A stretch of 64,000 nucleotides of DNA, from NCBI GenBank assembly GCA_964615995.1, contig CAZTSR010000003.1:64327-128326 (forward strand). Direction: 5' to 3'. The DNA comes from an uncultured Bacteroidales bacterium. GTDB taxonomy: Bacteria; Bacteroidota; Bacteroidia; Bacteroidales; UBA10428. Shown here piece by piece: positions 3,616-13,547 of this stretch (the stretch's first letter is position 1; every line of letters begins with the position of its first letter). Made by a program: the position numbers and the translations under genes. Below the pieces are notes generated by a model. The model searched no databases, was not told where the DNA came from, and worked only from the letters and a program-made list of their open reading frames with translations.

Positions 3616-3946
3616 AAAGTGAAAATTTTTAAAAAAAATATAAGTAAATAGTAATCAATTACAAAAACCACAAATTATCTTTCCCGAAGGGTGGTATTTC
3701 GTGCCCTTCGAAGTGAGGGAACATTTCGGCTGCTAATTCGGGATATTTGATTGTTATGGGTAAATTCCGTTAATGAACGGTGATTGGTAAGCGACAGCCT
3801 TTCAGGAATGAAAAAGATATCCCTATTTAAAAGCAGATTTCCTATGATGCTCTTTCACTGTGCAATATTGGTTGAAAAAAATACGAAACCAAAGATTCAA
3901 ATCAAAGACAAAAAATATAGCTTTAAAGTTTATAAAAATTCCGCCC

Positions 3947-6658
3947 ATGTTTTTATTTCCAGTTACTTTAAAAAAAGTCCAAAAATGGGCTTCCAAAGGT
4001 AAATATGATTTGTTAATTGAAGTCCTTGGTGACCCCAAGTGTAAAACTGACATAAAAATCGAAACCATTCATCTACTTGGCAAAAAGAAAGTAACAAAAG
4101 CCATTCCTGTTTTAACCGCCTTGATTCATGAGTTGCCTCTTAGAAAATCATTAATTGCCTGTTATGGAAATTTAAGGGACACCAGGATATATGATACGTT
4201 AATTAATCTGCTCCATCACGACAAAGAAAACATACCTGAAATTGTTCGTGATTTAGAGAATATCCATTATCCCGATGCAATACCCGTCCTGTTAAAGATG
4301 GTTGCCAGTGGTTCAGCAGATGATGCTATCCTTCATTCGATTAAGGTAATAGCCGACAAAAATGAAAGCTACGATGACATACTGAAAAGTTTCACTCCGG
4401 ATCAAACAGAATCCTGCTTAATTTTGCTTTGCAAAATATTGGCCGGTAATGATAAAAAAGAAATACAGACCAAACTCAATGCGTATATTTTTACAGAAAA
4501 TGCGCTGTTCAGGAAAGAAATAGGTCTTGCAAAAAAAACCAAAAAAGAAAATCAATGGGCTGACTGGCTGAAAGGTGATGCCGACGATTTCCGGCGACTG
4601 GCTGCTTCAGATGAGGAATATGTTTATGATATGCTCATGGATCAATATGAAAAAGGCCATAAAATTTTGGATCCATATCAGGATGTTTTTGCAAACCATA
4701 TTATAAGGATGGCTGATGCTGCATTCAGAGAAAGAGCGCTTTGTTTTATTGAAAAGCATAAGCTGGTTAGGGCGGCTGCAGAACTGGTGAATCATATCAG
4801 TAATTATGATGGCCAAATTCGGTTGAGAATAGCTAAAACACTGTCTGCTTTAGATATTCATGATTATAACGACGTGATAAAAGGAGATACACAGGATTTT
4901 ATACGTTTATTCGATCATAATCCCAGGGAAGGCGGAAATTTACTTAAGGAAATGGTGACGCACACATTTCCGCTTACCAAGGAAGAGCTGCAAATCTTAG
5001 CTGAAATTATTTCCGATTTAGGGAAGTCAAATAAACCAGAAGCTGTTGATGTTTTAGTTGCCGGTGTCAATGAAACATCATCAATAGGAGAAAAATGCTT
5101 TGACGCTATTCAGCAAGCCGGCAATGAAAGATTTGATGCAATTCTTTCCGGTATGTTGATCTCTTATAAAGACAAAACACGGATAAAAGCAGCAAAAAAG
5201 CTTGATCAGTTAGGAGATCATCGATGGGTGGATATTGTAAAGGGTGATGACAATGATATTGAACGCCTCTGTCTAGCTGGTTGTAAAGCTGCAATCGACA
5301 AAGAAATTATTTGCCTTGGAATGGACAGATATATTCGCGAAAAAGCAGCCCATATATTGTTGAAGGTATTGAAGAACAATCCCCAGGATGTTCTGAACTG
5401 GTCAGATATCGGGAAATCGATAACAACGCCTCATAAGGATGTACATGAAGACAATCATTCAGATCATGAAAGGACATCGGATTGCCATAGTGATAACGAA
5501 GGCCGTTCCATACATGAGGATTTGGGTTTTAACCTGACTTTTAATAATGAACAGCTTAAGTTTTTCAATGAGGTCGATTACGCTGACAGACGCAAGAAGA
5601 ATACCATTTCTGAAGAATATCTCATCGAGATGTTTGAGTCAAATCAGGATTCTTTAAGAGAGGATATGTTTGAAGATGCCAGACAGTTCTCCTCGGAAAA
5701 GCTGATTGAAGTAATAGGCAGGCTGGTTGAAAAAGAGGGTAAATATTCAAAAAAAGCATTTGAATATCTTTTGCTGCATAAGGTTGCCGCTTTACCGTAT
5801 TTTATAAAATCATTGTTATCCTATAGAGATGAAGACATCATCAGGGAAATTATTGCTGCCGGAGCACAGTCTTATAAGCTTCTTATTGATTTGTTATCTG
5901 AAAGCAAAAAAGTTCAATATGTAATTGAAGTGTTGGGGTTACTTGGCAATAAGCAGGCCATTGATCATATATTTCCTTATTTAACTTTCCGCGATGATAA
6001 AGCAGTCAGAATGAGTTCTGCAGGTGCTATGATCCATCTGGGTGAAACAGATTGGAAAGATATAATATTTGGAGATGATGATGATTTTGAGCGACTTGTA
6101 TTGAAGTGCGATGTCAGGTTGCTGAGTTGGTATAAAACCTCTTTTGTTGACATTCAATTTAGTTATCTTAAGGTACTTCTTGCCAAAACTTTAGCCCGGT
6201 TGGGTGAGAAGGAATTAGCAGGAGAAGTCAGAGAGCTGTTGATATCACCAAATCATAACGTTACAGATGTTGCCGGGGCCCTGGCCATGATTGACAGTAC
6301 CGACTGGAGTAAAGTAATCCTGGGCAACGAATCGGATTTTAAACGAATTGCCGGGGTTTGTAATATAGATGCTGTTAAAGTTTTGCTTGTCTTTTTAAAA
6401 GCCGCTGAAAGGGGAACCAGGGCAGCTGCAGCAGAAAGTCTGATCTCTATCGCAAAAGTCAATTTTTCTGTTGTTCAGGATGAATGGAAATCTATAACAG
6501 CCACTATCGCTCAGAAACACGAGGACAGCAGCAAACATGTGAGTCACTGGGCCGAAACACGATCGGGTGATTGTCATTCCGATTATATTTCACATACAGA
6601 TACCGGACTGGGTTTGACAATCTCAGATGATTTAGATTTGCGGGCTGATGACAAATAA
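3947..6658 (+). CDS. large HEAT (PBS-lyase-like) repeat protein, internally duplicated, each half ending in a His/Asp/Cys-rich DCHSD module
   Basis: Track ORF is 3860..6658 (932 aa). The ATG at 3947 (MFLFPVTLKK) is preferred because the first 29 codons are low-complexity and promoter-like. HEAT-like repeats are present (KAIPVLTALIHELP, DAIPVLLKMV, LGNKQAIDHIFPYL). The ORF overlaps the downstream rSAM gene by 11 nt. Confidence 0.8.
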   Translation: MFLFPVTLKKVQKWASKGKYDLLIEVLGDPKCKTDIKIETIHLLGKKKVTKAIPVLTALIHELPLRKSLIACYGNLRDTRIYDTLINLLHHDKENIPEIVRDLENIHYPDAIPVLLKMVASGSADDAILHSIKVIADKNESYDDILKSFTPDQTESCLILLCKILAGNDKKEIQTKLNAYIFTENALFRKEIGLAKKTKKENQWADWLKGDADDFRRLAASDEEYVYDMLMDQYEKGHKILDPYQDVFANHIIRMADAAFRERALCFIEKHKLVRAAAELVNHISNYDGQIRLRIAKTLSALDIHDYNDVIKGDTQDFIRLFDHNPREGGNLLKEMVTHTFPLTKEELQILAEIISDLGKSNKPEAVDVLVAGVNETSSIGEKCFDAIQQAGNERFDAILSGMLISYKDKTRIKAAKKLDQLGDHRWVDIVKGDDNDIERLCLAGCKAAIDKEIICLGMDRYIREKAAHILLKVLKNNPQDVLNWSDIGKSITTPHKDVHEDNHSDHERTSDCHSDNEGRSIHEDLGFNLTFNNEQLKFFNEVDYADRRKKNTISEEYLIEMFESNQDSLREDMFEDARQFSSEKLIEVIGRLVEKEGKYSKKAFEYLLLHKVAALPYFIKSLLSYRDEDIIREIIAAGAQSYKLLIDLLSESKKVQYVIEVLGLLGNKQAIDHIFPYLTFRDDKAVRMSSAGAMIHLGETDWKDIIFGDDDDFERLVLKCDVRLLSWYKTSFVDIQFSYLKVLLAKTLARLGEKELAGEVRELLISPNHNVTDVAGALAMIDSTDWSKVILGNESDFKRIAGVCNIDAVKVLLVFLKAAERGTRAAAAESLISIAKVNFSVVQDEWKSITATIAQKHEDSSKHVSHWAETRSGDCHSDYISHTDTGLGLTISDDLDLRADDK

Positions 6659-9011
6659 CCTGATTTCCTGTTCGGCCCGTATTCATAGTAATCCTCATTT
6701 TATGGTGATTCCCAGTAATGCATGCAATGCTTCATGCCATTATTGCTTTGGACCCAACAAAGGAAGAATTATCAATGAAGAGCAATTCAGTGAAAATATC
6801 AGTTTTATTGAAAAGGTCGTTCAAACTACACAACAAACCAAGGTACACATAACATTCCATGGAGGTGAGCCGCTGATGGCTCCGCTGAATATTTGGAAGA
6901 GCGGATTAAAATTAATCGACCGGACTTTCAAAACCCAAAAGCTTAAGCTTCAAATCCAGAGTAATTTATGGAACCTAACCCAGGAACATTGTGCTTTATT
7001 CAGAGATTACGGTATTTCATTCAGCACCAGTCTGGATGGACCTGAGGAAATAAATGATCTACATCGTGGGAAGGGCTATTTTTCCAAAACGATGAACGGT
7101 GTTGATCTTTTGCGGAAAAACAATATGAAGGTCGGGTCAATTGCCACTTTCTCTCCAAAAAACATGGACAAGATAAATGAAATCTTTACTTTTTTCGTCA
7201 GACAAAGGCTTTCATTTGCTGTACATGCTTCATTGCCACCGCTTACCGGTAAGGCAAATTCTTTTGTTTTGAGCCCTCAACAATATGGAACATTGTTATG
7301 TGACCTGTTCGATTTGTATGTGCCCAACCGCAAGTATATCAGTATTTCATCCTTTGATCAGCTTTGCCAATCAATCACGGATAACAGGGGCAAAGTATGC
7401 ACATTCAAGGACTGTACAGGCTCTTTTCTGGCCATTGATCCGGAAGGAAATATATATCCCTGTCAGCGGTTTTCAGGGAACCCTGATTATTGCCTTGGAA
7501 ATGTAATTGATCCGGAGATAATCAGCCGCTTACAGAATAACCCTGTTACCAACAGCCTGGTTGCTCATCATAAACAAATAAAAATTGAATGTAAGGATTG
7601 CGATCATATGAACTATTGTAAGGGTGGGTGTTATTATAACAGCAAAGCATCAAAGGAAACCAAAGACCCTTATTGCGAATCGTATAAAATGATTTTTAAC
7701 AAAATCAGGAATAGGCTGATCGGAGAGATGAGTAGTCCTGATAATTTCCGGGAAATTGTGGATAAACCTTTTACCAGCAATGGGAATCCGCTGCTTCGGA
7801 AAGGTCCTGTTATTGAACTTACGCAAAAGCCGCATCCGGTGACAAAAGCGATCAATTCGGCAAAAATTATTTCAGTTGTTGCCTTATCGCGATCAGCTAC
7901 AATAGACGAGGCCCATCAATCATTGAAAGACCTGGGCATTGGCGTTGAAAAGTCATACCTTGAAAATCTGAAAGAGCAGTTCAGCAGGAACCATTTCAAA
8001 TTAAATAACTGTTACATTCATACGACCTTTAATTGTCAGTTAGCATGCACGCATTGCTATGCAAAAGCCGGAAATTCTTCCGGCGAATCCATGCGTATTT
8101 CCCAGATAGCTGACATTTTAATGCAGGTGAAGGAAAACAAATTCAGACAGGCCATAATTACCGGTGGTGAACCGCTGATCTGCGACAATCTGGATGGTTT
8201 TCTGAACCGGATGATTGAACTTCGCCTGCAAATTGAGCCTGTAATTATTGTGCTTAGGACGAATTTATCCATGCCATTGTCAGACGGATTACTAGCTAAA
8301 ATAGCCCGGGCATTTCATCAGATTGTTGTAAGTGTTGACGGAGACAAAGAATATCATGAAAAGCGGAGAGGAGAAGGAACATACTCCAAAGTAACTGAAA
8401 ACATTCAAAGATATCAGCAGGTTATTCAAAATGTAAATAAGCCTGCTGAGTTATCAATAGGTTGTGTAATGCCTGCTGATGACATTCATGGGGGACCAGG
8501 TCAGAGTGTCCGTGATTTTGCTTATGCCAAAAACATAAGAAGAGTGAGGTTTAAACCACTTTTGCCGATAGGGAGAGCTGCTGACACATACACTTCCCTG
8601 GTTTCTGAGGCTCTGGATAGTTATGTTGACAAGGAAGAAGCCTTAAAGTATCCGTTTAAGCCATTTAAAACCTGTGGTATTGGTTATAATGTATACATAG
8701 AGCCAAAAGGCCATGTTTTTCCCTGTTATGCGTTTCACAAACCTCATACCTATATTGGCAATGTATTTGAATCGGGCTTGAACGGGATAGTGATGAGCGA
8801 GGCATTCAGGACTTTATCCGAACATAATGTGGATACCAACTCAAAGTGCAAAAAATGCGGATTTCGCTATTTATGCGGAGGCGCATGCCGTGCCTGGGGC
8901 CGGAATTTTACGCAGTATGATCTGGATGCACCGCCTCCCGATTGTGAAGGTCTGTATAAAAAGGCCGAAGATATCTATACGGCTGCGCTGGACTATCTGA
9001 AGAGCAGGTAG
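6648..9011 (+). CDS. fused tandem radical SAM/SPASM-domain enzyme (two complete maturase modules)
   Basis: 787 aa. Module 1 has CNASCHYC (6723-6746) and SPASM motif CKDCDHMNYCKGGC (7590-7631). Module 2 has CQLACTHC (8034-8057) and SPASM motif CKKCGFRYLCGGAC (8847-8888). GGEPL motifs occur in both modules. Confidence 0.9.
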   Translation: MTNNLISCSARIHSNPHFMVIPSNACNASCHYCFGPNKGRIINEEQFSENISFIEKVVQTTQQTKVHITFHGGEPLMAPLNIWKSGLKLIDRTFKTQKLKLQIQSNLWNLTQEHCALFRDYGISFSTSLDGPEEINDLHRGKGYFSKTMNGVDLLRKNNMKVGSIATFSPKNMDKINEIFTFFVRQRLSFAVHASLPPLTGKANSFVLSPQQYGTLLCDLFDLYVPNRKYISISSFDQLCQSITDNRGKVCTFKDCTGSFLAIDPEGNIYPCQRFSGNPDYCLGNVIDPEIISRLQNNPVTNSLVAHHKQIKIECKDCDHMNYCKGGCYYNSKASKETKDPYCESYKMIFNKIRNRLIGEMSSPDNFREIVDKPFTSNGNPLLRKGPVIELTQKPHPVTKAINSAKIISVVALSRSATIDEAHQSLKDLGIGVEKSYLENLKEQFSRNHFKLNNCYIHTTFNCQLACTHCYAKAGNSSGESMRISQIADILMQVKENKFRQAIITGGEPLICDNLDGFLNRMIELRLQIEPVIIVLRTNLSMPLSDGLLAKIARAFHQIVVSVDGDKEYHEKRRGEGTYSKVTENIQRYQQVIQNVNKPAELSIGCVMPADDIHGGPGQSVRDFAYAKNIRRVRFKPLLPIGRAADTYTSLVSEALDSYVDKEEALKYPFKPFKTCGIGYNVYIEPKGHVFPCYAFHKPHTYIGNVFESGLNGIVMSEAFRTLSEHNVDTNSKCKKCGFRYLCGGACRAWGRNFTQYDLDAPPPDCEGLYKKAEDIYTAALDYLKSR

Positions 9012-9346
9012 TTTGCATTGAGTCCATATGATATTCCAAAGCATACATGAGCCGCCTAAGATCCCTTAGGGGCTTATTGTATGGCTCAGGCCCTGCGGCT
9101 ATGAGCTTAAGGAGCTCCCGCTCGCGTCTATCTATGTTTTCTTCTTTTTGTTATTCAGTCAATGGTTAGTATGGAGTTTCTTTTACAAGTACAGGAAAAA
9201 TAGTTCTGGAATTAAAATAAAAGATTGATTAAATTATACATGTTACATTCGATTTCAAAACTTTAATAGTCAAAATTCCTAACTCATATCGTAATAGTTG
9301 AGCTAAAATGAGGATATTTGCACTCTTTTTTTAGTTTTATGATTTT

Positions 9347-10705
9347 ATGGCAAGGAAAAGCAGTCCTCATAATTTAGGGACAGAAGGAGTTGGGAAATTG
9401 CTGTTACAGTATTCGGTTCCGGCAATAATTGCAACAGCAGCAGCCTCTCTATACAATATTATCGATCGAATTTTTATTGGGCAGGGAGTTGGTCCCCTGG
9501 CAATTTCAGGCCTCGCCCTTACATTCCCATTAATGAATATTACTGCAGCTTTTGGTGCTATGGTGGGAATTGGTGCAAGCGTTATGGTCTCCATCAGGCT
9601 GGGCGAACACGACAGAAAAGGCGCAACTATGATTCTTGGTAATGCTGTAATGTTGAATATTATACTCGGTATTGTTGTTGCTCTTGTTACCTTTATTTTT
9701 CTTGAACCTATTCTCTATACTCTAGGAGCAAGCAAGGATACCTTGCCTTATGCCAAAGAATTTATGCAGATTATTTTGGCAGGTAATGTTTTTGCTCATC
9801 TTTATCTTGGTATGAACAGTATAATGAGGGCGTCTGGATACCCTAATAAGGCAATGTCCACAACACTCATTACTGTAATAGTTAACCTTGCTCTGGCTCC
9901 GGTATTTATCTTTGTTTTTAAATGGGGCATTCGCGGAGCAGCATTGGCCACTGTTATTGCTCAATTGATTGGTACTGCATCAACAGTTATTCACTTTTCA
10001 AAAATTAATAGTTTCGTGCATTTTCTTCCTGGATACATGAGGTTGAAAAGGGCAATAATTCGGGATATCGTTTCAATTGGAATGTCGAACTTTTTCATTC
10101 TTATAAGTGGTAGCGCTGTATTTATAATAATGAACCTTAGTCTTAAGAAGTATGGTGGAGATTATGCAATTGGTGCTTTTGGAATCATTGGCAGTATTGC
10201 AAATCTGGTGGTTATGATAGTAATGGGATTTAACCAGGGAATGCAACCAATAGTAGGATATAATTTTGGCGCACGAAAAACACCTCGTGTTATAAAGGCT
10301 TTTAAACTGACTATTTTTGCTGCGACATGTGTTACCAGCTTTGCATTTTTGCTTGCAGAAATTTTCCCAAAACTCATTGCAACAGCCTTTAATAATAATA
10401 GCGAACTTATTAATTTGTCGGTCACAGGTATGAGGCTAAACCTTATGATGTTCCCTGTTGTTGGCTTTCAAATAGTAACATCAAGTTTCTTCCAATCAAT
10501 TGGTAAAGCAAAAATCTCTATTTTTCTTTCACTTACAAGACAGGTTTTGTTTCTTATCCCAGCAATCTTAATTCTTTCTCATTTCTTGGGATTGAAAGGT
10601 GTTTGGCTCGGTGGCCCTATTGCCGATTTTTCTTCATCCCTATTGACTTTATTGGTTCTTCAATGGCAAATAAGAAAATTACATAAGACAGTTAACTCCT
10701 TGTAA
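9347..10705 (+). CDS. MATE-family efflux transporter
   Basis: 452 aa, 12-TM-like. The N-terminus LLLQYSVPAIIATAAASLYNIIDRIFIGQGVG is typical of the MATE/NorM family. Confidence 0.9.
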   Translation: MARKSSPHNLGTEGVGKLLLQYSVPAIIATAAASLYNIIDRIFIGQGVGPLAISGLALTFPLMNITAAFGAMVGIGASVMVSIRLGEHDRKGATMILGNAVMLNIILGIVVALVTFIFLEPILYTLGASKDTLPYAKEFMQIILAGNVFAHLYLGMNSIMRASGYPNKAMSTTLITVIVNLALAPVFIFVFKWGIRGAALATVIAQLIGTASTVIHFSKINSFVHFLPGYMRLKRAIIRDIVSIGMSNFFILISGSAVFIIMNLSLKKYGGDYAIGAFGIIGSIANLVVMIVMGFNQGMQPIVGYNFGARKTPRVIKAFKLTIFAATCVTSFAFLLAEIFPKLIATAFNNNSELINLSVTGMRLNLMMFPVVGFQIVTSSFFQSIGKAKISIFLSLTRQVLFLIPAILILSHFLGLKGVWLGGPIADFSSSLLTLLVLQWQIRKLHKTVNSL

Positions 10706-10832: not shown

Positions 10833-10866
10833 AAACTTATATATTATATATTGCATATATAAGTTT
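10833..10866. promoter_or_regulatory. perfect 12-bp-arm inverted repeat AAACTTATATAT-N10-ATATATAAGTTT upstream of padR (candidate PadR operator)
   Basis: Read directly from the sequence. It lies 25 nt upstream of the PadR start, and a further ATAAGTTT copy is at 10879-10886. Confidence 0.45.
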
Positions 10867-10890: not shown

Positions 10891-11235
10891 ATGATTACGA
10901 CTGAATTACTCAAAGGTTCATTAAAGTCAATTGTACTGAAACTGCTGGCTGAAAACGGACGGATGTATGGTTATGACATTACCCGTAAGGTAGAAGAAAT
11001 AACCAATGGCAAAATTAAGCTCACGTATGGCGCCTTGTATCCTGTGCTTCATAAACTCGAAGTGGATGGGGCAGTGATTACGGAAGCAGAAAATTATAAC
11101 AACCGAACACGGATCTATTATAAGCTCACTCCTAAAGGTAATGGATTTGCAGTGGAAAAGATTAAAGAATTACAGGAATACCTTGAAGTAATGGCATTGG
11201 TACTGAAATCCAATCCTGAACTTGGGGTTGAATAA
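10891..11235 (+). CDS. PadR-family transcriptional regulator
   Basis: 114 aa. Contains YGYDITRKVEE...GALYPVLHKLEVDG, the PadR winged-helix signature. Confidence 0.9.
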   Translation: MITTELLKGSLKSIVLKLLAENGRMYGYDITRKVEEITNGKIKLTYGALYPVLHKLEVDGAVITEAENYNNRTRIYYKLTPKGNGFAVEKIKELQEYLEVMALVLKSNPELGVE

Positions 11236-11273
11236 AATTAGCCCTTATTTCAATCCTAATTTCCGATTCTGTT

Positions 11274-12599
11274 ATGAATTACATTTTGAATATATCGAAT
11301 ATCGAGTTCATCAAAAAAGAGGTGGCTGGTTCCGGACTTACCTATTCTCATTTGATGGATGAACTGATAGATCATGTTTGTTGCGATGTTGAACAGGAAA
11401 TGCGCAATGGCTTATCTTTCGCAAAGGCCTACGAAATGGTAAAAACCAAAATTGGCATGGAAGGTCTGGAACGCATACAACATGAGACCCTTTATTTAAT
11501 TGATAAAAAATATCGAATTATGAAAAATATCATGAAGTTTTCAGGATTGGCCGCGCCCATCGTGCTGGCCTTTGGTTCACTATTTAAAATTCAGCATTGG
11601 CCGGGTGCCGGTGTTATGTTTGTATTTGGCTTCTTTTTGCTTTGTTTTATATTCCTGCCCAGCGCCATTTATGTCAGCTATAAGGAAGTCAGCAACTTTA
11701 CAAGAAAATGGACACATATTGTGGGCTTTCTTGGAACCTTTTTCATTTCAATCGGGTTCTTGTTTAAAGTCCAGCACTGGCCTTTTGCAGGCATTGCCTT
11801 AACCATTGGCATTATAGTAAGCTGTCTGCTTTTTTTGCCCATGGTGCTCCGAAACCAGCTGAAGGATCGAAACAATCCTGTTCCAAAGTTTGTCTTTGTA
11901 ATTGCATTTGCCGGATTCATGGGAGATCTGGCCGGATTTTTACTCAAAATTATGCATTGGCCCGGGGCAGGAGTTATTATGATAGCCGGATGCATTTTGC
12001 TTGTAATTGTTGCATTTCCATTATATGTATATCATGCTTACAAAGATCGTTTGCACATTGCTAACAGCTTTGTATTTATTCTGATTGTGATGATATGGTA
12101 TATCATTCCGATAACTCTAATCTCATTAAATCTTTCAAGGGAAGTTTTGAGCAATGTATATGAACAAAATCAGTCATTGAAAAATGATCTCGAATTTCTG
12201 GAAGAGATCAATCTCGTCACGGTTGAGGGCATAAAGGACAATCAATCTGTATATATTGTTAATGATCAATCAAGGAGCCTGATGGAATTCATCGGAGAGA
12301 TGAAAGTTAAATTACAAGATCATAAAATGCCGGATAGTGTTGAAATGATTCAATTGACCAACCGGGTTAATGCATATGAAAGTCAATTGATGTCTTTAGT
12401 AAATGATGAAAAATACCGTGCAGTTATTAGCCGGACACTTGAAGAACCTTCAGGTTTAAGAGATCAGCCATTTGATAATCCTGATTTGCTTCTGAATCAT
12501 TTAATATTTCTTCAAATGAATATCGGGATAGCTGAACAAACCGCTTTAAAGCATTTACAGATGAAAAATAGTCAGGCAATCCAGGCAATCAACAAGTAA
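11274..12599 (+). CDS. membrane protein with three 60-aa GldL-like TM-hairpin repeats and a GldM-like helix/periplasmic tail
   Basis: 441 aa. FKIQHWPGAG, FKVQHWPFAG and LKIMHWPGAG motifs begin at 11583, 11763 and 11943, exactly 180 nt apart. A later LNLSREVLSNVYEQN segment resembles the GldM N-terminal LNVSKEVL helix. Confidence 0.8.
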   Translation: MNYILNISNIEFIKKEVAGSGLTYSHLMDELIDHVCCDVEQEMRNGLSFAKAYEMVKTKIGMEGLERIQHETLYLIDKKYRIMKNIMKFSGLAAPIVLAFGSLFKIQHWPGAGVMFVFGFFLLCFIFLPSAIYVSYKEVSNFTRKWTHIVGFLGTFFISIGFLFKVQHWPFAGIALTIGIIVSCLLFLPMVLRNQLKDRNNPVPKFVFVIAFAGFMGDLAGFLLKIMHWPGAGVIMIAGCILLVIVAFPLYVYHAYKDRLHIANSFVFILIVMIWYIIPITLISLNLSREVLSNVYEQNQSLKNDLEFLEEINLVTVEGIKDNQSVYIVNDQSRSLMEFIGEMKVKLQDHKMPDSVEMIQLTNRVNAYESQLMSLVNDEKYRAVISRTLEEPSGLRDQPFDNPDLLLNHLIFLQMNIGIAEQTALKHLQMKNSQAIQAINK

Positions 12600-12611
12600 A
12601 ATCATAAAGAA

Positions 12612-13547
12612 ATGAAAAACAAAATATATTATCTCGGAATATTTTCAGGAATAGTAACCGCATCTGGCTGCATTTTTAAAATTATGCACTGGCCGGGGGC
12701 AGGAGTATTATTAACCATTGGATTATTATTTCTATCGTTGCTTTTTCTTCCTGTTGCCATTGCAAACATGGTCAAAATGGAGAACGACAGGAAACTTAAG
12801 ATTTTTTACATCCTGACTGCCATTGTTATGTCTTTTAATTTTTTAGGAGCCTTGTTTAAAATAATGCATTGGCACGGTGCAGGTATTATCATGATGATTG
12901 CTATTCCTTTGCCGTTTGTTGTTTTGTTACCTGTCTGGGTATATTCCAATGGAGCAGTTAATAAGATCAATTGTAAAAATATCCTGGCTGTCATGTTCTT
13001 CTTTGCATACTTTGCAGCGATATCAAGTGTACTTGCACTCAGTGTATCCAAAAGAGTAGTTGAAGATTTTGATACATCCGCACTTATTGTACAGGAAAAA
13101 ACGATGACATTAAAGGAGAATACAGCACTGGTTTCAGGTTATTCTGAGATAAATAATCCGCTAAGCCATGAAGCAGAAAGACTTTGTAATAAAATTGCAG
13201 ATGTGAAAAGCTTGATTCTTAAAGGCGGCCAACAGGAATTATCGAGGAAGCATTTTGTATACCCGGATGTAAAGCCGGTGATTGAAACCCGGTATCTGAC
13301 CGAATTAAAAACAGAAATTATGAATTTCCGCAATCTGGTTCAAAAGCAGTATGGATCAGAGAGTCGGATTTACAAGTATGTTGAAGAAACTTTTACGGTT
13401 TATGCCGATAACGCAGATGATGTTCGCTGGGAGGACGCCTGGTTGAATAAAAACATCATTGCCTCAGCTATAGAAAGTCTGAACCTTTTGGAATTCAGGG
13501 TGAGATTGGTAGTGTTGGCGGGTCTTAGCGAATCGTCACAAATATAG
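12612..13547 (+). CDS. paralogous membrane protein with two GldL-like hairpin repeats and a GldM-like segment
   Basis: 311 aa. FKIMHWPGAG begins at 12675 and FKIMHWHGAG at 12855, 180 nt apart, followed by LALSVSKRVVEDF. Confidence 0.8.
   Translation: MKNKIYYLGIFSGIVTASGCIFKIMHWPGAGVLLTIGLLFLSLLFLPVAIANMVKMENDRKLKIFYILTAIVMSFNFLGALFKIMHWHGAGIIMMIAIPLPFVVLLPVWVYSNGAVNKINCKNILAVMFFFAYFAAISSVLALSVSKRVVEDFDTSALIVQEKTMTLKENTALVSGYSEINNPLSHEAERLCNKIADVKSLILKGGQQELSRKHFVYPDVKPVIETRYLTELKTEIMNFRNLVQKQYGSESRIYKYVEETFTVYADNADDVRWEDAWLNKNIIASAIESLNLLEFRVRLVVLAGLSESSQI

Follow-up and report, generated by a model that had tools for sequence, protein, structure and literature searches.

A PadR operon of Bacteroidales encodes a putative membrane sensor pair built from GldL-like and GldM-like motor components

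We analyzed a 64,000-nucleotide (nt) stretch of DNA, hereafter the window, from an uncultured Bacteroidales bacterium (GenBank assembly GCA_964615995.1, contig CAZTSR010000003.1, positions 64,327 to 128,326 of the forward strand); all coordinates below are those of the window. Our subject is an operon at 10891-13547 in which a gene for a PadR-family regulator is followed by the genes of two membrane proteins, here called A and B. Both proteins are assembled from parts related to GldL and GldM. To our knowledge, the only role known to date for GldLM and PorLM is that of a dedicated engine for type IX secretion and gliding. The genes of the operon and the features within them are listed here (aa, amino acids; TM, transmembrane; AF2, AlphaFold2 model).

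10833-10866, + strand: candidate PadR operator over the padR promoter, a perfect 12-nt inverted repeat, AAACTTATATAT (10833-10844) / ATATATAAGTTT (10855-10866).
10891-11235, + strand: padR, 114 aa, PadR-family winged-helix transcription regulator (Pfam PF03551, E=3e-17, 62.8 bits).
11274-12599, + strand: protein A, 441 aa.
11274-11504, + strand: residues 1-77 of protein A, putative PadR-binding cytoplasmic three-helix domain of the HAAS / perm_prefix_1 type (AF2 helices 7-19, 25-44 and 49-76).
11505-11687, + strand: GldL-type TM hairpin 1 of protein A, residues 78-138, FKIQHWPGAG (best GldL_N stretch, 91-138; aligned to 7sau_C; AF2 helices 78-106 and 112-138).
11697-11864, + strand: GldL-type TM hairpin 2 of protein A, residues 142-197, FKVQHWPFAG (GldL_N stretch; AF2 helices 142-166 and 172-197).
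11886-12041, + strand: GldL-type TM hairpin 3 of protein A, residues 205-256, LKIMHWPGAG (GldL_N stretch; AF2 helices 205-226 and 232-256).
12063-12596, + strand: GldM/PorM-type TM helix of protein A (residues 264-287, ending LNLSREVL) and a complete D1-type periplasmic helical domain (288-441), from the A-family profile against the PDB and from GldM_1st in orthologues.
12612-13547, + strand: protein B, 311 aa.
12612-12950, + strand: GldL-type TM hairpins 1 and 2 of protein B, residues 2-56 and 60-113, FKIMHWPGAG and FKIMHWHGAG (GldL_N; profile against 7sau_C; AF2 helices 2-25, 30-56, 60-85 and 90-113).
12972-13544, + strand: GldM/PorM-type TM helix of protein B (residues 121-142, ending LALSVSKRVV) and a D1-type periplasmic domain (143-311), from the B-family profile against the PDB and from Foldseek of the B model.

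An earlier note on this DNA, made from the sequence, had described two paralogues downstream of padR that carry three and two copies, respectively, of a two-TM module of 60 aa. Open reading frames (ORFs), motif positions and BLASTP all bear this description out. Copies of the motif [FL]K[IV]xHW are found at residues 104, 164 and 224 of A (nt 11583, 11763 and 11943) and at residues 22 and 82 of B (nt 12675 and 12855), with a spacing of exactly 180 nt, and the five modules align without gaps, G20, K24, H27, W28, A31, G32 and P48 being invariant. The paralogy of the two proteins is evident between A148-313 and B6-181 (BLASTP, E=4e-18, 31% identity). The same note had seen further TM segments after the modules; an extra TM segment is present, but there is one per protein and not several, and the sequences LNLSREVL in A and LALSVSKRVV in B mark the periplasmic end of this single helix. 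AF2 accordingly gave seven TM helices plus D1 for A (predicted local distance difference test, pLDDT, 87.5; predicted TM-score, pTM, 0.65) and five TM helices plus D1 for B (pLDDT 88.4, pTM 0.72). The soluble N-terminal domain ascribed to A also proved real, with about 77 aa and three helices predicted by AF2. As read from the sequence, the predicted cytoplasmic loops are rich in Lys and Arg (KKYRIMK, YKEVSNFTRK, RNQLKDRNNPVPK and YKDR) and the HWPGAG turns are not, which argues for a cytoplasmic N terminus (N-in) and for a periplasmic location of the C-terminal ~155-170 residues. The predicted topology of A and B places the hairpin turns and both D1 domains on the periplasmic side, and the short loops between the hairpins and before the GldM helix in the cytoplasm.

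The relationship of the hairpins to GldL, proposed in the earlier note from the signature of the modules, was borne out by profile searches. Pfam GldL_N (PF22827) matched A at 67.6 bits over three stretches and B at 47 bits over two, against a cut-off of 24, well outside the range of chance, and the family profiles found the GldL chain of a solved motor, 7sau_C, at E=3e-4 for the A family and E=6.9e-6 for the B family. For hairpin 1 of A, an alignment to 7sau_C was obtained at the level of residues, and this segment has the FKIxH…G two-TM hairpin of GldL/PorL.

The C-terminal parts of both proteins were likewise matched to GldM and PorM. When searched against the PDB, the A-family profile found GldM 7sau_A with E=2.1e-15, profile positions 272-470 aligning to GldM 14-223 (the end of the TM helix and the whole of D1), and it also matched PorM 7sat_A and 7cmg_A and GldM 6ys8_A. 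The B-family profile found PorM 7sat_A (E=1.1e-21) and GldM 7sau_A (E=9.4e-18). A Foldseek search with the B model returned GldM or PorM for each of its top 11 matches (7sau_B, E=4.9e-4, probability 1.00, 218 columns, TM-score 0.59 on target). Pfam GldM_1st (PF12081) was detected in 9/16 A orthologues, with a best E-value of 1.2e-14, and is assigned to many A and B homologues in precomputed tables. On their own, the window copies of A and B fall below significance for GldM_1st, and TIGR03517 matches the window A weakly (E=0.042, 12.6 bits against a cut-off of 180); since these copies are too diverged for GldM_1st, the GldM assignment rests on the orthologue family. The "GldM-like helix" of the earlier note was thus correct in naming GldM and understated in extent: by the profiles, GldM_1st and Foldseek, the C-terminal ~170 aa comprise a full GldM TM helix and a complete D1 domain. 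Collectively, we regard the homology of A and B to GldL and GldM as virtually certain.

Next, we consider how far the operon is conserved. A scan of one genome per species returned 292 relatives, and the locus counts given here refer to the best 80, all of them in metagenome-assembled genomes of related Bacteroidales/Bacteroidia. The order padR, A (three hairpins) and B (two hairpins), on one strand, recurs in the 80 loci wherever the contig is long enough to show it. Complete copies of padR, A and B are present together in 72/80 loci (73/81 with the window included), and the other eight are broken by contig ends or frameshifts. This order persists while the identity of A among loci drops to about 31%. 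The padR and A genes overlap by 8 nt in 51/79 loci, the median gap between A and B is 20 nt, and padR, A and B are the only genes conserved across the 80 loci, A and B never being found apart. The adjacency to padR first noticed in the window therefore holds throughout: in every locus with enough contig, padR lies directly upstream of the A orthologue, and we have very little doubt that the linkage is obligatory. Neither of the two outcomes named in the earlier note as refuting its proposal, a lack of HMM support for GldL/GldM homology or an absence of PadR linkage elsewhere, was observed. We also noted that A and B of the window share a reading frame, with a stop codon and 12 nt between them (12612-11274 = 1338 = 3×446); the shared frame fails in most orthologous loci and is thus probably coincidental.

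Across these loci the hairpins fall into five orthologous, position-specific classes. The nearest neighbor of a hairpin belonged to its own class in 374/375 cases, and identity is 47-68% within classes and 25-37% between them. Such fixed, position-specific classes suggest that the hairpins pack with each other. The most divergent of the five is hairpin 2 of B. Its second TM helix (12879-12950, residues 90-113) is rich in proline and follows the consensus I-x-I/L-P-F-P-Y-V-V, in which the two Pro are found in 64 and 71 of 72 loci. This Pro-rich helix, with a predicted break at residues 98-99, sits where GldL has its Glu.

The family extends well beyond these loci, to about 1,160 A-type proteins in a set of 5.8 billion proteins, and a hairpin profile run against 1.84 billion cluster representatives recovered 2,099 hairpin-bearing proteins. 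Several sister architectures were met. One locus (L081, 720-2006, P0350) has PadR and a protein with the N-terminal domain of A (N-domain), two hairpins and the GldM TM/D1 part, and no second gene. In another (P0241, L090 98-1165), the N-domain is joined to four hairpins with a period of 63 aa and to one TM helix, without D1 or a partner. P0263 and P0260 have three hairpins and the GldM TM/D1 part and lack the N-domain, and the hairpins of a further locus, L084, are arranged as 2+3+1. Two small membrane proteins of L084 (3994-4860, 288 aa, with two hairpin motifs, and 6878-7234, 118 aa, with one) carry an FKxxHWPGAG-type hairpin without the GldM part; they have a distinct C-terminal TM region in common and adjoin a giant nSTAND1-WD40 protein. 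Such proteins suggest that the hairpin can be reused as a TM module by Bacteroidota in proteins other than GldL.

The part of A that is most conserved is neither hairpin nor D1 but residues 1-77, in which over 15 positions are invariant among sequences of 31-87% overall identity (in the orthologue alignment, S25, H26, L27, D33, H34, C36, C37, E40, M43, G46, F49, A52, Q69, T72 and Y80). The signature SHL-x5-DH-x-CC-D-x-E (11346-11393, residues 25-40) is invariant among ~100 aligned orthologues, and its two adjacent Cys, with His and Asp to either side, hint at metal binding or at thiol/redox sensitivity of this site. The NCBIfam model NF038403 (perm_prefix_1) matched 17/24 orthologous N-domains at sub-threshold scores, always at the same 36 residues, with a best E-value of 3.4e-6, and the PadR of the window has its best NCBIfam match in TIGR03433 (padR_acidobact, 64.4 bits, below the cut-off of that model). 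An N-domain profile searched against the PDB found only a spurious match to GLD-1. A precedent for such a pairing is the HAAS-PadR dyad, in which an N-terminal three-helix domain, carried by assorted multi-TM sensors, always stands beside a standalone PadR that is proposed to be released upon a membrane signal (10.1101/2020.09.24.301986). The HAAS superfamily comprises DUF1700, DUF1129 and DUF1048 and has a GxP kink, and its named partners are PspC, LiaI-LiaF-TM, Toastrack, FtsX/MacB, FtsW/RodA, VanZ and "uncharacterized 6TM, 4TM, 2TM" modules (10.1101/2020.09.24.301986). Among the relatives of A, variants that have other TM modules and the same N-domain keep PadR (L081, L086-89), and the hairpin plus GldM protein that lacks the N-domain has no PadR neighbor (L084). 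The N-domain and PadR thus co-vary, as is expected of a partner domain, and we consider it likely that the N-domain of A is a PadR-partner domain of the HAAS type.

Upstream of padR, the inverted repeat AAACTTATATAT/ATATATAAGTTT flanks a -7-like box, TATATATTGC, 24 nt ahead of the padR ATG. The sequence ATATATAAG occurs four times in the 64-kb window, against 0.76 expected; two occurrences form the operator pair, and the other two are single and intragenic, so that the window yields no further operator copies from which a regulon could be defined. Among 76 related loci, a Bacteroidetes-type TAnnTTTG box is found in 66 and an inverted repeat of the form TATAWAN-N0-8-NTTWNATA in 54, against a mean of 1.7 after shuffling; the everted arrangement of the window recurs in 8 loci, and candidate sites in orthologous loci have the form TATATAAG-N-CTTATATA. 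A conserved palindrome that overlaps the promoter fits autorepression by PadR, and 10833-10866 is accordingly our candidate for the site that PadR may bind.

We then turn to the question of whether A and B could form a motor. In the 5:2 ion-driven rotary motors (MotAB, ExbBD, TolQR and GldLM), a ring of five stator units encloses two axle TM helices, a protonatable carboxylate lies within the membrane, and the stator can turn relative to the axle. The second TM helix of GldL and PorL contains a protonatable Glu (Glu49 in Flavobacterium johnsoniae) that is conserved and needed for function. In true GldLM and PorLM motors, the pair formed by GldL Glu49 and GldM Arg9 is conserved and has been proposed as the coupling between proton flow and rotation (10.1101/2022.01.28.478170). 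In A, the Glu of 7sau_C aligns to an invariant Leu123, and in 70+ loci the five hairpin classes have Leu, Gly, Leu, Leu and Pro at the corresponding position. At the position equivalent to GldM Arg9, 18 residues before the Asn of LN(V)S, Lys or Arg was found in 0% of A and B sequences (~70 loci), hydrophobic residues standing there instead, and no charged residue was found at the TM-core positions in 70+ loci. In the AF2 models the last hairpin (hairpin 3 of A, hairpin 2 of B) is joined to the GldM-type helix by a loop of ~7 residues, which precludes free rotation. Other parts of the motor are missing as well. TIGR03513, which describes full-length GldL, scored 34.1 bits on A and 24.9 bits on B against a cut-off of 68.3, and only profile positions ~5-50 of 247 matched (9-50 for A); the cytoplasmic C-domain of GldL is absent, and there are three and two hairpins per chain, not one. 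By the profile alignments, both proteins end after D1 and lack D2-D4, the part of GldM directed toward the outer-membrane GldKN ring. Neither gldK or gldN nor any other type IX secretion gene is present in the window or among the conserved neighbors of the 80 loci.

The view that A and B are a working, alternative proton-driven stator and motor for type IX secretion or gliding could appeal to their clear homology to both motor components and to hairpin and helix counts of five and two, as in the motor. It has against it that no copy at any locus retains an equivalent of Glu49 or Arg9, in addition to the short loops that bar free rotation, the missing GldL C-domain and GldM D2-D4, and the lack of type IX secretion genes nearby; we regard it as extremely improbable, and judge from the sequences that A and B are very probably not a proton-driven rotary motor. 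The earlier note had left the choice between a membrane-embedded sensor and a mini-motor. Its mini-motor half is unlikely, as the ion-coupling Glu and Arg are gone in 70+ loci and stator and axle are covalently linked; the sensor half gains a concrete mechanism from the PadR-partner-like N-terminal domain. With the charged motor residues gone, A and B are most likely an envelope sensor rather than a motor.

We favor, with modest confidence, a reading in which the operon carries out one-step membrane signalling through PadR, in the manner of HAAS-PadR systems, with a sensor pair that evolved from both components of the type IX secretion/gliding motor; taken by itself, the sensor role of A and B seems to us slightly better than an even call. 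On this reading, contacts made by their GldM-like helices and D1 domains would bring A and B together. When the membrane or the periplasm changes, as under an envelope-active compound or envelope stress, the TM bundle would be altered, and the alteration would reach the N-domain of A, which would hold or release PadR. Free PadR would repress its own operon through the promoter-overlapping palindrome, and probably also nearby efflux genes.

Alternatively, A and B may be regulated cargo, namely envelope-protective or structural proteins that are induced when PadR binds a small molecule, with some other role for the N-domain. Many PadR repressors bind ligands directly, and an autoregulatory palindrome fits this scheme equally well. 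Listeria offers two parallels: the main targets of LstR and LltR are the TM-protein operons to which they themselves belong (PMC6624303), and deletion of lftS left the repression of lieAB by LftR unchanged (PMC4517056). We nevertheless consider the cargo explanation unlikely, because no part of A is better conserved than the N-domain, which travels with PadR even in variants that have different TM modules (L081, L086-89), while hairpin plus GldM proteins without the N-domain are also without a PadR neighbor (L084). A quite improbable third explanation sees A and B as decoys or monitors of the real motor: their GldL-type hairpins, or their GldM-type helix and D1, would enter into assemblies with true PorL/PorM, through which they would signal the state of motor assembly to PadR or modulate it. 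In common with true GldL and GldM, A and B do keep the FKIxHWPGAG turn and the features LNVSK...D1, and GldM D1 domains pair in the motor; yet none of the 80 loci has linked type IX secretion genes, and the hairpins form five fixed, position-specific classes.

Several observations weigh against the signalling reading that we favor. PadR itself could sense a ligand directly, in which case A and B would merely be regulated products. The assignment of the N-domain is also affected: individually inspected N-domains score 14-20 bits with NF038403, whose cut-off is 30, no match to this model is found for the N-domain of the window, searches of N-domains with Pfam found nothing consistent (the DUF1700/HAAS models did not match), and the published GxP motif of HAAS is not evident in A. 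Moreover, we infer the equivalence of NF038403 and the HAAS domain from the FtsX/MacB example in the HAAS paper, and not from a computed match. A Foldseek search of the full A model against the PDB gave no significant match, the best being QseE/QseG helical bundles at E=0.31; since GldM is recovered with the sequence profile of A and with the model of B, this null result is uninformative rather than negative. All database entries that we met are annotated as "hypothetical protein". Lastly, the link to efflux genes described below is present in about a third of the loci only, all from related genomes.

The numbers of modules raise a further question. In GldLM and PorLM motors, five GldL chains, with ten TM helices, surround two GldM helices (10.1101/2022.01.28.478170), and the three plus two hairpins and two GldM-type helices of A and B add up to the GldL5GldM2 stoichiometry. 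A tentative and, in our judgment, rather unlikely interpretation is that A and B assemble 1:1, the ten hairpin helices closing as a ring around the two GldM-type helices and the D1 domains pairing in the periplasm. Such a complex would be a rotary motor "frozen" by fusion and loss of charge and turned into a receptor, in which a small residual rotation or tilt, caused by membrane or periplasmic cues, might be read out through the N-domain and PadR. Cytoplasmic loops as short as these would allow the hairpins to take neighboring positions in a ring. Among the best 150 of the 2,099 hairpin-profile matches, we found no natural A-B fusion and no five-hairpin protein; these proteins have two or three hairpins, and one has four. 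We also entertained the rule that the hairpin sum is always five in sister families, and rejected it: L081 has two hairpins without a partner, P0241 has four without a partner, and L084 has 2+3+1. The competing view, to which we assign a little less than an even chance, is that A (seven TM helices) and B (five) are self-contained bundles that at most dimerize via D1, the total of five having no structural meaning. Sister families with other counts (L081, P0241, P0263, P0260) speak for separate bundles, as do the confident predictions of both monomers alone (pTM 0.65 and 0.72). Against this view, the 3+2 split is invariant in the 80 loci of the PadR-A-B clade, the A and B genes are never separated, and the five hairpins are five distinct orthologous classes. 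If the 5:2 ring were true, a 5:2 motor scaffold would here, for the first time, be seen in the service of transcriptional signalling; the complex would also be a natural, asymmetric, single-copy model of five non-equivalent stator positions, and its five distinct hairpins would give a handle on asymmetric stator-axle contacts that are averaged out in true motors.

A comparison with characterized systems delimits what is new here. The motor complexes GldL5GldM2 and PorL5PorM2 (PDB 6YS8, 7SAT, 7SAU, 7SAX and 7SAZ) share with A and B the two-TM hairpin with its FKIxH(W)xGA turn (GldL), a TM helix ending in LN(V/L)SK/R-E-V and followed by the helical D1 (GldM/PorM), and a distribution confined to Bacteroidota. 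They differ in that the parts that A and B fuse in two polypeptides are spread over the seven chains of the motor; in that A and B have no Glu49-Arg9 pair, GldL cytoplasmic domain, GldM D2-D4 or gldK/gldN linkage; and in that A has an extra N-terminal regulatory domain, with padR always ahead. The HAAS-PadR systems (Ravi et al., 10.1101/2020.09.24.301986) resemble our operon in the standalone padR gene immediately upstream, often overlapping; in a partner that starts with a short three-helix cytoplasmic domain set on a multi-TM module; in the proposed logic, from a membrane signal through the helical domain to the release of PadR; and in an association with MacB/FtsX-type pumps and envelope stress. 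Unlike them, the operon has a GldL/GldM-derived TM/periplasmic sensor, which is not among the modules named by Ravi et al., and an obligatory second paralogue, B, without the N-domain. Furthermore, the N-domain of A matches at sub-threshold scores, and in place of the GxP kink it has its own SHL…DHxCCDxE signature, which is not in the published HAAS description.

Acidobacterial PadR proteins (TIGR03433) neighbor duplicated-orphan FtsX permeases that carry perm_prefix_1 (NF038403). Our operon shares with these systems the best match of the window PadR to TIGR03433, the matches of A-orthologue N-domains to NF038403, and the MacB_PCD/FtsX permeases that lie downstream in about 30% of the loci; it differs in that the prefix domain is carried by GldL hairpins and not by a permease, in the Bacteroidales lineage, and in that all scores fall below the curated cut-offs. 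The Listeria operons LftR/LftS-LieAB, LstR-Lmo0421 and LltR-Lmo0600/0601 likewise couple a PadR repressor to one or more co-transcribed membrane proteins in an autoregulated operon, with control of efflux in response to envelope-active compounds, although they belong to Firmicutes and their membrane partners are unrelated and without motor-derived modules. A literature search for GldL together with PadR, or for GldL-like, PorL-like or GldM-like proteins, found nothing relevant. The signalling logic, in which PadR is paired with a membrane protein that carries a helical partner domain at its N terminus, is already known, while the fused, multiplied and de-charged GldL/GldM sensor is not described in the literature that we searched. 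In this family, motor components have been fused, multiplied, stripped of their ion-coupling residues and joined to a putative PadR-partner domain, and the machine would thus be recycled as a regulatory receptor. It would also add, in Bacteroidota, a new class of sensor to HAAS-PadR signalling, itself poorly studied.

The surroundings of the operon bear on what it might control. Genes of a tripartite pump of the MacAB-TolC type (OEP (TolC-like), HlyD, ABC and MacB_PCD/FtsX) follow B on the same strand in 25/80 loci, and a divergent TetR-OEP-HlyD-ABC cluster lies upstream in 26/80. The downstream pump cluster lies ~200 nt after the B orthologue in the 25 loci concerned (within L011-L069), for example at L064 8611-9930, L029 7941-9230 and L022 12174-13394. 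As tripartite pumps adjoin about a third of the loci, abundant environmental Bacteroidales may use the family to control how they respond to envelope-active compounds. For comparison, the targets of PadR repressors in Listeria include efflux pumps as well as the repressors' own operons, which encode TM proteins (PMC4517056, PMC6624303). In the window, the gene directly upstream of the PadR operon encodes a MatE exporter (9347-10705). It is the last of three same-strand ORFs spanning 3860-10705, the first of 932 aa (3860-6658) and the second encoding a 787-aa protein with two radical-SAM domains and SPASM (6648-9011) that overlaps the 932-aa ORF by 11 nt. Together, these three upstream ORFs resemble a peptide-modification/export cluster.

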